From: Promethearchaeota archaeon
Lineage (GTDB): Archaea > Asgardarchaeota > Lokiarchaeia > Sigyniarchaeales > SOKP01
Assembly: GCA_016926735.1 (NCBI GenBank)
Contig: JAFGOA010000078.1
Coordinates: 1-26,265, forward strand
Direction of reading: 5' to 3'
DNA length: 26,265 bases
Position numbers and translations under genes: made by a program. Below are positions 6,363 to 16,453 of the stretch, in pieces. A model generated the notes under the pieces. The model was not told the origin of the DNA and made no database searches. It worked only from the letters and a program-made list of their open reading frames with translations. Position 1 is the first letter of the stretch. Each line of letters starts with the position of its first letter.

Positions 6363-6369
6363 GGTGATC
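6363..6369 (+). promoter_or_regulatory. Shine-Dalgarno motif of the E2 gene
   Basis: GGTGATC is complementary to the conserved 16S 3' end (GAUCACC); GGTGA ends 6 nt before ATT at 6374. Confidence 0.6.
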
Positions 6370-6373
6370 AACG

Positions 6374-6883
6374 ATTAGAGAAGACACAGACTATTCTGAA
6401 TCTGTTGAAGCATTTAAAAATGAAGATCTTGTTATATTAGAACCTTGGGGAAGAAGCATAGATCACCTTCGATTAACTATACTTGGAAAAAAAAATACTC
6501 CATATGAAGGGGGAAAATTTATTTTTGAGGTAAAATTCCCTGAGAATTATCCATTTATGCCACCTTATGTTTATGCGGTAACATTAATGTGGCATCCAAA
6601 TATAGACTCATCAATCCCTCCTGGTAAATTGAATATTTGTTTAGATCTAATAAATCCTGATAAAGTAGGAAAAGTGGATCCAGCAACTGGTGCAAGTGGA
6701 TGGACACCATCAAAAACATTAACAAATATTATTGAAGCATTAAAAGGTATGATGCATGTAGAACCTCCATTCTTTAACCCAGGAGATCCCCTAAATCACG
6801 AAGCAGGAGAGCAATATTTTAGAAATCATAAAAAATTTGTCCAAAAAGCAAAACAATGGACAGAAAAATATGCAATGGACTGA
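6374..6883 (+). CDS. Ubiquitin-conjugating enzyme E2 (about 169 aa, probable ATT start; the ORF track start at 6557 is internal)
   Basis: The frame is open from 6368 and encodes GKKNTPYEGGKFIFEVKFPENYPFMPP, then HPNID, catalytic ICLD, WTP, PLNHEA and AKQWTEKYA, a complete UBC fold. Confidence 0.9.
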   Translation: MREDTDYSESVEAFKNEDLVILEPWGRSIDHLRLTILGKKNTPYEGGKFIFEVKFPENYPFMPPYVYAVTLMWHPNIDSSIPPGKLNICLDLINPDKVGKVDPATGASGWTPSKTLTNIIEALKGMMHVEPPFFNPGDPLNHEAGEQYFRNHKKFVQKAKQWTEKYAMD

Positions 6884-8378: not shown

Positions 8379-9998
8379 CTACATATATGTTATAACAACA
8401 TTAAATTTTTTAATAACAGAGTTTTCTTTAGCTTCTCCTAAAGGGATGAGGGCCACAATTGCATTACTATCAATTTTTAAATCAGCTTTAAGTTTTAAAT
8501 TAGGAACTTTTAATGATTCTACATAGGGATTCCAATAAAACTCTTTAGTCATTGGATTTGTCATAATCCATAGATCTGGATCTAGATCATAACCACTCAT
8601 AGTCATAGCTTTAAAAATATATTCAACATCCGCATCGAAGGGTACTACTATTTGAACATTTTCTTCACCTTCAATATTTCCACACGCAAGACAGGATTCT
8701 CGCTTTTGAATTTCCAAACAGTCAAATTGTCCATAAACGCCATTATAATTAATATATGAAGGATACATAGGTGGACCAATATTCCTTCCTTTAACTCTAA
8801 ATAATAACTTTAATGCTTCTTGGGATTCTATACTGGAAATGATAGAACTCACAGTTTGAATAGCAGCGATTTTATTTTCTAAAATATTTTCCATTTCTTC
8901 AAATTTATAATCGGGTCCAAAGGTTTTTCTAATATTTTCTTTCCATTCATTTACTTCTTGTTCTGTGAGAGTTTGTAATTTTTCTAAAGGAATATTTTCT
9001 TCAAATACTCGATTTCTCAATGCCTCTAATTCATTTTGAGCTAATTCAATTAAAAAATTAACATCATCATCTTTATTGAAATCAGGTTTTTTTCCATATT
9101 TTTTTTGAAAATCGACTTCTGCTTTTATGACACAATGATTTCTATTTCTTGGTAAACCTTTAAGTGTACAAGCTGCTACTAATTTATTAGCTGGGGGAGG
9201 AATTGGAACTAAACATCTATAACAAGCTGTTTGATTCATTTTATTAGGAGCATAATCTTCATCAAACTTATATTTTATATTATCACGTATTTTTTCAATA
9301 ACAGGCTCGATTTTTTCTTCTCGAATTTTATCAATTTCATTTTCCAATTCTTCAATTTTAGCTCTAGCAGAAAAATATTCAGGATAATCATCTTCATTAA
9401 GTTTCCATAACTCAGATTCTAAAATTTTCTCAATTTCTTTCTCACGAGAACCATAATCAAGATTTGATCCTTTAGGAATTATTATTTGAACATGACCTTC
9501 AAAACCTACAGTTCCTCCTTCTACAATAGGTTTTTTTAATCTTAAACATATTTTATTCAGATCTAATCTGGCATTAAAATTATCTAAGGCCATAATAATA
9601 ACATCTGCCTCTTCATAGACAGACATAGGTAATTTTTGAAGTTTTTCAAAATAGAAATTTATTTTCAAAAAGGGATTCATTTCCTTTAATCGTTCAGCGG
9701 CTACTTCTGCTTTAGGTCTACCTTCATCTCCTGGCTTAAATAACATTTGACGGGATAAATTTGACGTTTCAATTGTGTCTAAATCAATTAATATTAATTT
9801 TCCAATTCCCATTAAAGCAAAGTCTTTAGCGATCTCACATCCTTACGTGTATGTTATTAATTATAACAAACTTAACGCGCCCACACCAACAATCATTATA
9901 GTCCCATTATCGAGAATGTCTTGATTCCAACCATCTATGAGTTGTTGTCTAGAATACATTCTTGATTTTTTTCTTTCTACATTTTTATTATCAATCAT
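8379..9998 (-). CDS. Ubiquitin-like activating enzyme E1 (ThiF family, UBA3/UBA2-like), spliced: exon 1 9998-9873, exon 2 9842-8379; about 529 aa
   Basis: Exon 1 reads MIDNK...MYSRQQLIDGWNQDILDNGTIMIVGVGAL. Exon 2 reads GCEIAKDFALMGIGKLILIDLDTIETSNLSRQMLF...KAEVAA...ALDNFNAR...GTVGFEG, then CYRC, catalytic ACTLKGLPRNRNHC and CLAC. Confidence 0.9.
9843..9872 (-). other. 30-nt BHB-type mRNA intron in the E1 gene
   Basis: mRNA: GCGU-UA^A-GUUUGUUAU-AAUUA-AUAACAUAC-ACGU-AA^G. It has a 4-bp central helix, 3-nt bulges, a 9-bp intron stem with one U.U mismatch and two in-frame UAA; excision restores GALGCE. Confidence 0.85.
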
Positions 9999-10156
9999 TT
10001 ATAGATCAAAATTATTCTAATTAAGATATTATATCAAAATAAAAACGCAATAATATATTCTTTTTTTTTTATCTTAAAAATAATAACTTACAACAATCAA
10101 AATATTATCGTACAAATAATGTAATATTATCAGAATAAAAAAGAAAGTAAGTGAAA

Positions 10157-13100
10157 TTATTTTTTTTTCATTGTCTCTCTGAGCATTTTCTTGATTTCGT
10201 TAACATTTTCTTTCTCTTTTTCTTCTTGTATTTTTTGTTTTTCTTTTAATTTTGTTTCTTTTGACTCTTTAATCTTTTGTAAGAGATCTTCTTTCAAACG
10301 GATTAATCTTTTCATACTTTTTCCAAATAGTTTTGCATCTTCCTTAATCTGCTTTTCTTGAGATTTAGTCTTAAGTTTTTCTTTGAGAATTTCATCTTTA
10401 ATTGATTCAGATGCTTTTTGAGTAAAATTACCAACTTGATTAACAGTCTTCTTCATAAAATCAGATTTTTTAGATCTTTCATATTCTTCGAAAATTTTTT
10501 GCTCTTCAAGATGTTGTGTCATTATTTTTCTATGAACTTCCATTTTGTTTATCTTATCTTCAAGTTCTCTGATATTTTTTATTTCAAGTTCAAGATATTT
10601 TATTTGATGATTCCAACCAAGAGATTTGAATGTTTGAATCGCTTTATTATAATAATTATATGATTCATTAAAATGATATTCTGCAGCCGCATGTTTTGCT
10701 TTATCAATATATTCATATGCTTCTGATTGAAGCTGATTAAGCTTTTCTTTTTGCTCAACATATTCTCTTATTTTTAATGTTTTCTCCATTTCTTTTTTCT
10801 TAATTTCTAATTTTTGTCTTTCAATCTCTTGGAGGTATTGTTCATGCTCCCTCTGCCTTCTAAGTTCTAAAAATTTATCTCTTTTCTTTTTATTAAAATA
10901 GTTTATTTCTTCATTACGCACTTCATTGATTAAATCATTAATTTTATTTATTTCTGGTTCCCAACCAATAGTAGCAGCTAAGAAGTCTCGAGCCTCAATA
11001 TAAAGAGAAATTGCTTTCTGATAATCTGGAGGAATTAATTGTAAATATTCTGTTGCCTTTTCTAAAAGAGAATATGCAGTATCTCTTTGGGACATCTGTT
11101 TTTGTAAAATTTCATCTTTCTGGATCCTAATCAAATTTTCATTGAGAGCTTGAGTCCTTTCTCTTCTTTTTCTCTCTCTTATCAAAAGATTAAGATCTCT
11201 ATCTTGTTCAAGATTTTGTAATTCTTTTTGATAAATTAATTGTTTCTCTCTTTCTTTCTGTTCTTTTAATCCTATTATTTTTTTAATAGATTCACTAATC
11301 GAATTTGTAGGAAACTGGATTTGATCTAAAAGTGATTTTGCTTTTCTATATGATTCTATTGCTTGGTCAAATTGAGAATTATAAACAAGATTTTCTGCAT
11401 CATCTAATAAATTAAAAGCTTCTTGTCGTTTATTTTCAATTATTTGTTTTCTTTCTTCAAATTCATGAATTTTTATTTGTTTTTCTTGTAATTTTATTCT
11501 TTTATTATCAAACTCTTTTGCAATTCTAGTTTGAAATTCTTTATCTTCCAATTGTCTTTTTTGTTGTAATTCAAAATTTCTTTGCTTTTCTATTTGGTCT
11601 CTTCGTTTTTGTTCTTGAACTTTAGAAATCATTTCATCAATAAGATGTGTGGGGTAGTTTATTTGATTTAAAATAGTTTTAGAATTAAAATATAATTCAA
11701 GTGCCTTATCATAATCACCTCTTTCTACGATATCTTGAGCTTGTTCTAATAAATTCAAAGCTTTATCTTTTTCAACCTCTTGTAATTGAATCGATTTTTC
11801 TCTTTCCCTAAGTTGAACTTCTTTTTTCTGTATTTCTTTTCTTTCTATAACCATTTGCTCATTAATTCTTTTTTGAAACTCTTCTTCTTCCTTTAATTTT
11901 CTGATCTTTTCTTCCATTTGGCGATTTTTTATTTCATCTAATTCTCTCTTTTTTTCTTTCACTTCAGAAATAGATCTTTGAATTAAATCTATTTCATCTA
12001 TCCAGTTAATTTCTTCGAAAATATTCATTGAATTTTGATATGCAAGAATTGCATTATCAAGTTCACCTGTAGATACATAGTTTCTTGCTGAATCTAAATA
12101 ATTAAAAGCAAGTTCCTTTCTTTTTTCAAAATATTCTTTTTCTTTCTCTCTTTCTCTAATTATTAATTCTTTATTTTCTAATACTTTTCTCTCTATACTT
12201 AAGTTTTTAGAAACAAATTCTTGAAAGTCTTGATTCTGTTTTAAAATATCCTCTTTTTGTTTTTGCTGCTGGATTTCCATATTGAGATGAGATTCTTTCT
12301 TAGTTTTTACACTATTAATTGTGTTTTGGATTGTAGGAATATAATATTCCCAACCTTTCCCCATATCTTTAAGGAAATCTAAAGCATTATTATACTCTTT
12401 AATTGCATCATCAAATTCCTCATAATTAATTAAATGATCTGCTTTTTCTAAGATTTTAAAAAATTTCTCTTCTTTTTCCTTTTCCTCTCTTTTACGAGTT
12501 TCATATGCTTCCAATTTTTGAACTTGTTCTTGAGAGGATATATCTACAGTATCATGAGATTTTTTGTCAATAAATTCTTTAATTTCATAAATTCTCTCCT
12601 CCTGCATTTTTCTTCTTTGTCTTTCAGCAATCTTCATTTCCTTCCTTTCATTAATTTGCCCTAATAATTCCTCAAATGGTTGAATATATGATCCCCAATT
12701 AATTGATTTGAAGAGATCTATTGCTTGATTGACTTGATCAATTGCTTCATCATATTTCTCATTTTTATCTAATTCATTTGCATCATCGATCAATTTAAAT
12801 GCTTCTTCTCTAATTCTTTCTTCCTCATTTTTTGCTTCTAAATATGATTCTTGAAGGGATTGAAAATTCTTTTTTGTCTCAACTATTCCATGCTGCTTAG
12901 GTTTTTGATCGATATATTGTAATGTTTTTTGTCTTTTAATAAGATCTTGAGATCCTAAATTCTTATTGAGATATTTTATCTTTTCCAAAATGTGTTGTAA
13001 TTGTACTCCAGTCCAACCAGACTCTTTTAATAGTTGTATAGCCAATTCGTATTTCTTTATCGCTTTCTGAAAATTTCCTTCTTTCTCTAACCCTTCCGCT

Positions 13101-13384
13101 TGTTCTATAAGAAGAAATGCTTCTTTTTGGAGTTTACTACGTTCTTCTGAAATACCAAGTTGTTTTGATTTCTTTTTATCCTCTAATAATTCTACAAGCT
13201 CATCAATATGATCTTGTACATCATTATTTCTATGTGGTAAATACCCACTCTCTATAAGATTCTTTAATGCCTCTTGATATATCTCTATTGCTTTTTCTAT
13301 ATCATCTTCAGCTTCATATTTTCCTGCTAATTCTAAAGCTTTAATTGCCTCTTGAGCTAATTCATCTGAATCTGAATTTTTCAT
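10157..13384 (-). CDS. Large helical repeat protein: nine MIT/TPR-like modules joined by charged helical linkers
   Basis: The motif A(F/Y)xL(L/I)(D/E)xA...(Y/F)DxAIxxYxxAxxx(L/F)xx(I/L)x(W/F/Y) recurs nine times, mostly about 115 aa apart, with E/K/Q/R-rich spacers. Confidence 0.75.
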   Translation of the reverse strand: MKNSDSDELAQEAIKALELAGKYEAEDDIEKAIEIYQEALKNLIESGYLPHRNNDVQDHIDELVELLEDKKKSKQLGISEERSKLQKEAFLLIEQAEGLEKEGNFQKAIKKYELAIQLLKESGWTGVQLQHILEKIKYLNKNLGSQDLIKRQKTLQYIDQKPKQHGIVETKKNFQSLQESYLEAKNEEERIREEAFKLIDDANELDKNEKYDEAIDQVNQAIDLFKSINWGSYIQPFEELLGQINERKEMKIAERQRRKMQEERIYEIKEFIDKKSHDTVDISSQEQVQKLEAYETRKREEKEKEEKFFKILEKADHLINYEEFDDAIKEYNNALDFLKDMGKGWEYYIPTIQNTINSVKTKKESHLNMEIQQQKQKEDILKQNQDFQEFVSKNLSIERKVLENKELIIREREKEKEYFEKRKELAFNYLDSARNYVSTGELDNAILAYQNSMNIFEEINWIDEIDLIQRSISEVKEKKRELDEIKNRQMEEKIRKLKEEEEFQKRINEQMVIERKEIQKKEVQLREREKSIQLQEVEKDKALNLLEQAQDIVERGDYDKALELYFNSKTILNQINYPTHLIDEMISKVQEQKRRDQIEKQRNFELQQKRQLEDKEFQTRIAKEFDNKRIKLQEKQIKIHEFEERKQIIENKRQEAFNLLDDAENLVYNSQFDQAIESYRKAKSLLDQIQFPTNSISESIKKIIGLKEQKEREKQLIYQKELQNLEQDRDLNLLIRERKRRERTQALNENLIRIQKDEILQKQMSQRDTAYSLLEKATEYLQLIPPDYQKAISLYIEARDFLAATIGWEPEINKINDLINEVRNEEINYFNKKKRDKFLELRRQREHEQYLQEIERQKLEIKKKEMEKTLKIREYVEQKEKLNQLQSEAYEYIDKAKHAAAEYHFNESYNYYNKAIQTFKSLGWNHQIKYLELEIKNIRELEDKINKMEVHRKIMTQHLEEQKIFEEYERSKKSDFMKKTVNQVGNFTQKASESIKDEILKEKLKTKSQEKQIKEDAKLFGKSMKRLIRLKEDLLQKIKESKETKLKEKQKIQEEKEKENVNEIKKMLRETMKKK

Positions 13385-15925: not shown

Positions 15926-16453
15926 ATGTCAAGCTTCAAATTAAAAGTACTTTTAACGGGAGCAGCAGCTTGCGGTAAAACTAGTCTTGTTCAAAGGTTT
16001 ATAAAAAACCATTTTCAAGCAAATTATAAATTAACTGTTGGAGTAGATATTCTTACAAAGGATGTTGAATTTCAACCAGGAGAAGTTGCTACACTCTCTA
16101 TTTGGGATATTGGAGGGCAACAAAGATTTGAATTTATCAGAAGTACATTCTATAAAGGAGCAGCAGGAACATTATTAGTATTTGATCTAACAAGAGAACA
16201 AACATACACTGAAACAAAGAAATGGTTAACAGAGATAAGACAATTTGCTGGTGAAAATATTCCTTTTGTACTAGTTGGAAATAAAGCAGATTTACTTGAA
16301 GATGTAGGTCGTGTTATTGATAGTGATGAAGCAAGGAAATTTGCCGAGGATGAGGGAAGCATTTATATTGAAACTTCAGCAAAAACAGGTAATCATGTTG
16401 ATGATGCATTTACGGAATTAACTCGCCGAATAATTAATTCTAGAACAAAATAA
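15926..16453 (+). CDS. Rab-like small GTPase (Ras superfamily)
   Basis: G1 GAAACGKTS, G2 T in YKLTVGVD, G3 WDIGGQ, G4 NKAD, G5 ETSAK; RabF-like motifs; GGAG SD upstream; no C-terminal Cys. Confidence 0.93.
   Translation: MSSFKLKVLLTGAAACGKTSLVQRFIKNHFQANYKLTVGVDILTKDVEFQPGEVATLSIWDIGGQQRFEFIRSTFYKGAAGTLLVFDLTREQTYTETKKWLTEIRQFAGENIPFVLVGNKADLLEDVGRVIDSDEARKFAEDEGSIYIETSAKTGNHVDDAFTELTRRIINSRTK

Follow-up and report, generated by a model that had tools for sequence, protein, structure and literature searches.

Introns of the bulge-helix-bulge (BHB) type in archaeal messenger RNA have so far been known mainly from one gene, cbf5, in Crenarchaeota. The reports on it (Watanabe 2002; Yoshinari 2006; Yokobori 2009, PMC2738675) concern a short intron in a protein gene, located at a codon that belongs to a catalytic or binding motif, and the last of them describes a relaxed BHB with predicted cuts between the second and third residue of each bulge, a hetero-oligomeric splicing endonuclease (EndA) and a patchy pattern of intron gain and loss. 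The same features appear to mark the element described here, a 30-nt insert in a gene for a protein resembling the ubiquitin-activating enzyme E1, found in a 26,265-nt stretch of DNA from a Promethearchaeota archaeon (contig JAFGOA010000078.1, assembly GCA_016926735.1). This whole stretch is called the window below, and coordinates refer to it unless another sequence is named; G000 denotes the window's genome and other G labels denote related genomes. The Promethearchaeota are the renamed Lokiarchaeota/Asgard group. Unlike cbf5, which is a case from the Desulfurococcales and Sulfolobales, the insert thus belongs to the Promethearchaeota/Asgard phylum and to a eukaryote-like E1 gene, and at least four genes of the one genome carry such predicted introns, where the cbf5 work concerned a single gene. 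Splicing of cbf5 was established by cDNA and in vitro cleavage, whereas splicing of the E1 mRNA is predicted from DNA sequence.

BHB introns in tRNA and rRNA genes have been described from Asgard archaea, many of them non-canonical (PMC11291895; bioRxiv 10.64898/2026.10.13.758758), and the E1 intron differs from these in its host, an mRNA, where no tRNA body would aid recognition. The accessible portions of these two papers report no protein-gene introns, and a literature search, outside which most subscription journals and supplements lay, found no description of BHB introns in Asgard protein genes. With a probability of roughly 85%, we consider the 30-nt insert to be an EndA-type BHB pre-mRNA intron whose removal is needed for E1 expression. 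It would then extend the archaeal BHB pre-mRNA introns to another phylum and another gene, and the genome apparently contains several of them. A further system for comparison is HAC1/XBP1, in which IRE1 cuts the mRNA at two structured sites and RtcB or Trl1 ligates it. The mechanism proposed below for E1 would share with it two endonucleolytic cuts, joining by a tRNA ligase and an active protein from spliced mRNA only; it would differ in the nuclease, which is IRE1 and not EndA in HAC1/XBP1, and in the recognized structure, which there consists of twin stem-loops and not of a BHB, while stress regulation is established for HAC1/XBP1.

The E1-like gene is situated on the minus strand. Its first exon (9873..9998) starts with the ATG at 9998..9996 and runs for 42 codons, ending in IVGVGAL, i.e. 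the first half of the GxGxxG motif. The predicted intron (9843..9872), assigned to the HBh' type of BHB, contains two in-frame TAA codons and recurs at the same site in eight further species. Exon 2 (8379..9842) comprises 487 codons from GCEIAK and the stop codon at 8381..8379, and encodes the ThiF/E1 adenylation domain and the catalytic-Cys region. A preliminary description of the window had claimed that the E1 open reading frame (ORF) lacks its N-terminus, which would lie upstream in the frame from ATG 9998 beyond a 30-nt gap with two TAA codons, and this is exact base for base. It had also predicted a truncated gene call, and the automatic ORF list indeed gives only a 477-aa ORF from ATG 9812. 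Orthologs begin at the position equivalent to the start of exon 1. Exon 2 matches Pfam ThiF (8.8e-51) over profile positions 32-237 of 238, and its best PDB relatives are eukaryotic UBA1 (1e-29), UBA3, UBA6, UBA7 and SAE2, with ThiF/MoeB weaker (1e-16 to 1e-18). The PDB alignment opens exactly at UBA1 residue 480, GCELLKNF, and further along the CTLKGLP segment is aligned with the PICTLKNFP region of UBA1. Since the ThiF match starts at profile position 32 and the UBA1 alignment at residue 480, the insert is placed within the GxGxxG nucleotide-binding loop of a predicted eukaryote-like E1. The combination of a ThiF domain with GxGxxG, a catalytic-Cys region, UBA1, UBA3 and SAE2 as closest relatives, and an E2 gene nearby characterizes the product as a putative ubiquitin-type E1.

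The fold around the insert, all on the minus strand, is built on a central helix with exon nucleotides GCGU (9875..9878) as the 5' strand and intron nucleotides ACGU (9845..9848, pairing in the order 9848-9845) as the 3' strand; in the window, the pairs are G.U, C-G, G-C and U-A. On its two sides lie the 5' bulge UAA (9872..9874), with a predicted cut between 9873 and 9872, and the 3' bulge AAG (9842..9844), with a predicted cut between 9843 and 9842. The intron hairpin h' (9849..9871) consists of the arms 9871-9863 and 9857-9849 and the loop AAUUA (9862-9858); eight of its nine positions are paired in the window, with one U.U mismatch, and all nine in G001 and G002. The preliminary description had given the same helix, bulges and hairpin, leaving the mismatch unmentioned, and had rightly stated that cutting after the second nucleotide of each bulge excises exactly 30 nt, 9872..9843. 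The exons joined in this way encode GALGC, as in 67 uninterrupted orthologs. A cut pair shifted by -1 yields an identical product in G000, and only the unshifted register yields GALGC in all nine intron-bearing sequences. An equally good motif, defined by four out of four central pairs, at least eight out of nine hairpin pairs and L = 30, is present at 1030 of 7,761,858 positions (1.3e-4) of this genome with 26% G+C, and the position of the insert was fixed separately by protein homology, apart from the motif. Under the rule given in the accessible part of bioRxiv 10.64898/2026.10.13.758758, the window intron fits the HBh' class, which is a canonical one. An alternative register of the central helix one base upstream, CGCG/CGCG, pairs better in the loci L145 and L176, but was rejected, as it replaces Leu with Phe there and shows no covariation.

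If the insert is indeed an intron, the exon GCGU of the pre-mRNA would pair with the ACGU near the 3' end of the intron, while the remaining intron would fold into a 9-bp hairpin, leaving two 3-nt bulges on opposite strands in the HBh' form, with no real exon-exon helix. A heteromeric EndA would cleave each bulge behind its second nucleotide; the exons would be joined by an RtcB-type ligase, and the intron would be freed, probably as a circle. Only the spliced mRNA would encode an intact GxGxxG ATP-binding loop and a 529-aa E1; unspliced mRNA would give a 45-aa peptide or, at best, a loop-less protein from ATG 9812. Cleavage, ligation and translation of the spliced form are steps that we infer.

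Support for this fold comes from a gap-free alignment of the nine intron-bearing 70-nt segments, scored on the BHB structure given above (144 cells). Standard pairs fill 87.5% of the 144 cells, a share that drops to 23.6-44.4% once the 3' partners are displaced by 1-3 columns, and across the nine sequences 90.1% of the hairpin cells and 83.3% of the central-helix cells are paired. Two-sided changes were found in four pairs, three in the hairpin, where one pair is seen as U-A, C-G and A-U, and one in the central helix. The latter is the third pair (columns 17-46), in which G-C has become A-U in three of the nine sequences, by a synonymous Ala change from GCG to GCA in the exon and a C to U change in the intron. 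Such an exon-intron covarying pair is what a BHB would require, and neither a DNA palindrome nor ribosome hopping would explain it. The covariation score is 0.262, compared with 0.144 +/- 0.023 in shuffled alignments, and is reached in none of 500 shuffles, a significance that is overstated because the nine sequences are related.

This overstatement is one of several points that weigh against the intron interpretation. By RNAfold, the minimum free energy (MFE) structure of the window sequence, with exon-exon pairing, has -13.4 kcal/mol, as against -9.7 kcal/mol with the BHB enforced (z = -0.56), and the BHB is the MFE structure in only one of the nine intron-bearing sequences (L125). We judge this not to be decisive, because bulges of 3 nt are penalized in folding and the enzyme binds the motif. 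Furthermore, the exon-exon helix h is essentially absent in the genus, where only a C-G and a G.U pair surround a mismatch, in line with the weak exon-exon pairing noted in the preliminary description; in five other intron-bearing species this helix has 3 bp. All four central pairs are found in only three of the nine sequences, the other six having three of the four. Four sequences have G.U as their outermost central pair and the five group-2 sequences have G.A, G002 has C.A beside the 5' bulge, and L176, whose intron is identical to that of L110, has two hairpin mismatches. A search of sequencing runs turned up no RNA run containing the locus, and two metatranscriptome runs of the source study yielded nothing over it, a result with no bearing on expression. 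Lastly, RtcB (PF01139) was found neither by family search nor by tblastn with a congener's protein in G000, an assembly of 99.3% completeness in 238 contigs. All three congeners have RtcB, as do 11 of 13 searched genomes overall, with G000 counted as a miss, and in G003 it is located on a contig of just 3.9 kb; given its presence in all congeners and on such a contig, the missing gene is likely an assembly gap.

The endonuclease, for its part, is represented in G000 by two PF01974 (EndA) genes, on contigs C33 and C100. Residues 23-203 of the C33 protein, among them the loop region that follows the first strand, align with PDB 3p1z_B (7e-36) and retain the Tyr/His/Lys positions, making this copy catalytic-like, while the C100 protein has diverged, has neither the Tyr nor the His and appears structural-like. 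The PDB entry we take to be the catalytic subunit of a crenarchaeal heterotetramer, and the identity of the triad residues is presumed likewise. The pair fits the (alpha-beta)2 EndA with an L1 loop that, according to the accessible part of PMC5829648, Asgard archaea possess; the paper associates it with the cutting of relaxed motifs, which would suggest a broad specificity of the G000 enzyme. ARAGORN called introns in 19 of the 52 tRNAs of G000. These calls are unevenly spread: a cluster of 21 tRNA genes at C157:7086-13605 has an intron called in one gene only, and the 31 other calls, mostly single on other contigs, include 18 with introns. The cluster might represent contamination or a tRNA array of mobile or viral origin.

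At the level of DNA, the insert is found at the same site and with the same length of 30 nt in all four genomes of the genus, while the 16 orthologs inspected from other genera are continuous. Among 80 loci in a species-representative collection, 75 cover the site; 67 of them read GALGC and eight carry a 30-nt insert, namely three congeners and the loci L145, L161, L176, L194 and L201. With the window included, this amounts to 9 of 76. Metagenome contigs cover the site in 60 of 78 loci, two of the 60 with the insert. A 151-nt contig from a DNA run of another study covers 9782-9932 with 0 differences; the likely source run gave only short, partly matching pieces at the locus, and no intron-less allele was found in DNA contigs assembled over the site. 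The preliminary description had proposed both an ortholog alignment with a search for compensatory changes and a confirmation of the insert in DNA reads, and had named relaxed selection as the mark of a pseudogene. The nine carriers with their four two-sided pairs, the contig of the independent run and the selection data below all came out on the side of the intron that it proposed.

The history of the insert was addressed with an E1 tree of 74 sequences, i.e. G000 and 73 of the 80 loci, five loci without the site and two truncated ones being left out. The nine intron-bearing genes fall in four places on this tree, and at least four changes are required. Forcing all nine together costs 179 log-likelihood units (p-AU, the P value of the approximately unbiased test, 1.6e-7), and forcing the five carriers outside the genus together gives p = 0.010, where in both tests the groups were named after the tree had been seen. 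Identity of site and length, along with similarity in sequence, points to a single origin with several precise losses afterwards, or else to spread through recombination. According to the accessible text of PMC2738675, the same pattern of gain and loss among related species is seen in the cbf5 intron.

Such a patchy distribution would also suit an element acting at the DNA level, i.e. a tiny mobile palindrome, programmed DNA excision or an assembly artefact. The rejection of a single clade and the four or more changes on the gene tree could be read in this way, and so could the form of the insert, which is an inverted repeat with two short words that resemble each other, GUUAAG and GUAAGG, on its flanks. 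Nine independent assemblies and an unrelated run contain the insert, however, with no intron-less allele in DNA contigs, and its exon-intron pairing covaries through a synonymous codon site, which is sensible for an RNA helix and not for the end of a transposon. Neither an Rfam family (none matched within 9650-10050 at E up to 1) nor another feature match was found, and we regard an origin of this kind as very improbable.

A second objection is that the gene may be dead or dying, a small palindromic insertion having broken E1 while a paralog on contig C237 covers its function. Two in-frame stops inside an essential motif are what a broken gene would show, and a ThiF-family paralog does exist on C237, 53% identical over residues 1-123. 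The ratios of nonsynonymous to synonymous substitution (dN/dS) point in the opposite direction. Comparisons between intron-bearing genes gave a dN/dS of 0.036-0.128 in exon 2 and comparably small values over the last 34 codons of exon 1 (0.04-0.13 for both exons), as in intron-less genes, a pair of which gave 0.072 for comparison, and the ratio remains low at dS of about 1 or more, up to saturation. Both exons are under strong purifying selection, with none of the relaxation expected of a pseudogene. Nine species with E1 proteins as divergent as about 70% identity retain the insert, and no other stops, frameshifts or further lesion occur in the gene; the covariation of the helix shows selection on the insert itself, and the paralog occurs in intron-less genomes too. 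The chance that the gene is dead thus seems minute. Because the insert is found in independent assemblies and a separate DNA run, and both exons are under purifying selection, we consider an assembly artefact and a pseudogene excluded for practical purposes. What these data describe is a gene interrupted inside a coding sequence under purifying selection, the translation of which would be blocked unless the insert is removed.

Removal at the RNA level might also be sidestepped by the ribosome, either by hopping over the 30 nt or by reading through the stops on an uncut mRNA. Bypass elements of this sort, such as T4 gene 60 and the yeast mitochondrial byps, require matching take-off and landing codons and need no exon-intron helix. 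Like them, the E1 insert interrupts an ORF with a short non-coding gap that contains a stop and a hairpin; the gap begins next to the hairpin, the stop follows soon after the last exon 1 codon, and the insert has a length divisible by three in each of the nine sequences. It differs from them in that matching codons are absent: in the nine sequences, exon 1 ends with the codon UUA or CUA, while the codon just ahead of exon 2 is UAA, AAU, AAA or AAG. The covarying central helix is not something that hopping would require, and read-through would bring 10 residues into the GxGxxG loop. Inserts in two further genes, one of 31 nt in an EF-2 paralog and one of 32 nt in an aldolase, share this fold and cut geometry even though they shift the frame. 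We therefore give translational bypass or read-through only a slim chance, and continue with the BHB intron as the preferred explanation.

These two genes emerged from a genome-wide scan for places where BHB geometry would join two open frames into one, which gave 8415 candidates in 3258 clusters. A filter demanding that a paralog span the junction left 11 loci, of which three were accepted (the E1 gene as control, the EF-2 paralog and the aldolase) and the other eight dismissed as weak. A strict-motif filter, which the E1 insert itself fails with five of six hairpin pairs, left 11 clusters, again with three accepted, i.e. NAD synthase (NadE), the EF-2 paralog and the aldolase. Filters on coding score left 285 and 150 clusters, mainly adjacent gene pairs, which were judged by eye only. 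Taken together, we find the evidence convincing that G000 harbors further predicted inserts of about 30 nt and of the same design in genes for an EF-2 paralog, a DeoC-type aldolase and NAD synthase. All of these predicted introns, the DnaG-like candidate described below included, have A as their first nucleotide and AA or AU as their last two, and are AU-rich hairpins of 30-32 nt.

In the EF-2/EF-G paralog, a 31-nt insert (G000:C188:20431-20461 = L203:632-662, plus strand) splits the P-loop between GHIDHG and KTTL, and the GTP_EFTU match of exon 2 starts at profile position 17. All four genomes of the genus have this insert and none of the 11 other orthologs read, and its central helix changes from ACGG/CUGU to AUGG/CCAU together with a synonymous His codon. 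The insert of the DeoC/LacD-family aldolase, 32 nt long (G000:C50:42170-42201 = L204:871-902, minus strand), lies between GAVGVD and MGRNIFQ. It is found in G000, in G002 (L253) and in G007 of another genus (L256), and is absent in G001 and G011; the central helix GCGU/GCGC of G000 is replaced by the compensatory GUGU/ACAC in G002. Within this aldolase gene, inserts also occur at a second site, after VIAGG, in G002 (36 nt, a clean HBh') and in G005 (L262; 30 nt, with a 5-nt 5' bulge). For NAD synthase, the 30-nt insert (G000:C143:3050-3079 = L264:450-479, minus strand) separates KYGD from GGVD; positions 2-143 and 144-242 of the Pfam NAD_synthase profile abut exactly at the junction, and the insert has an 8-bp hairpin and a central helix GGUG/CACU. 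Another candidate is a 31-nt insert in a DnaG-like Toprim gene (G000:C192:7776-7806 = L265:276-306, plus strand) between AIFGQ and TEGLL, where exon 1 has just 38 codons and no Pfam match. The apparent preference for Gly-rich loops may in part be a bias, because the screens rely on paralogs or very clean motifs.

A separate observation concerns a MoxR-type AAA_3 gene (G000:C235:~10265-10334, minus strand = L266:~965-1034), in which exon 2 matches from profile position 6 (GVPGLGKT) and the residues GHVLLE are encoded about 32 nt upstream of it in a different frame. The gene probably holds another insert of about 32 nt, for which no canonical BHB was found; a 69-nt candidate that the scan had proposed in the MoxR-like gene on C235 was wrong.

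Among the neighbors of the E1-like gene in the window is an E2 (UQ_con) gene on the plus strand (6368-6883), about 1.5 kb away, and E1 and E2 matches share one contig, a few kb apart, in at least G001 and G010. A second intron was suspected in the E2 gene, since Pfam covered only profile positions 61-139, and was dismissed, as comparison with orthologs showed a complete frame with an ATT at the start position. This start position (6374-6376) has no ATG, GTG or TTG near it at the 5' end of the window gene, and among 11 sequences (the window and 10 orthologs) it is occupied by ATG in five, TTG in one and ATT in the window, G001, G002, G010 and G032, which suggests an AUU start codon for the E2 gene of the window. 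Other neighbors encode a coiled-coil protein of 1075 aa that carries MIT and TPR repeats (10157-13384, minus strand) and a Ras-family small GTPase (15926-16453, plus strand); the MIT/TPR and Ras-family GTPase families are usually ranked as eukaryotic-signature proteins (ESPs) in Asgard archaea.

The E1 case would place the mechanism seen in cbf5 in the archaeal group closest to eukaryotes and inside a eukaryotic-signature gene. If it holds at the RNA level, gene callers would systematically truncate or split such genes in Asgard metagenome-assembled genomes, skewing ESP inventories and completeness estimates, and the tRNA-splicing endonuclease and ligase would together constitute an mRNA-splicing system in Asgard archaea, with a bearing on the origin of mRNA splicing by protein enzymes, as in HAC1/XBP1, and on intron tolerance. 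The repeated presence and absence at one site would also lend itself well to the study of how introns are gained and lost. Tentatively, and with more doubt than confidence, we can picture a Promethearchaeota family with a dynamic population of BHB mini-introns of about 30 nt in protein genes, tens per genome, repeatedly gained and lost and favoring Gly/Ala codons rich in G+C within nucleotide-binding loops, since an AT-rich genome could form the central helix nowhere else. Should this be true, the family would be the first prokaryotic lineage with routine splicing of protein genes by the tRNA-splicing machinery, and the splice-dependent expression of E1, the EF-2 paralog, NadE and DnaG would amount to a regulatory gate similar to that of HAC1/XBP1.

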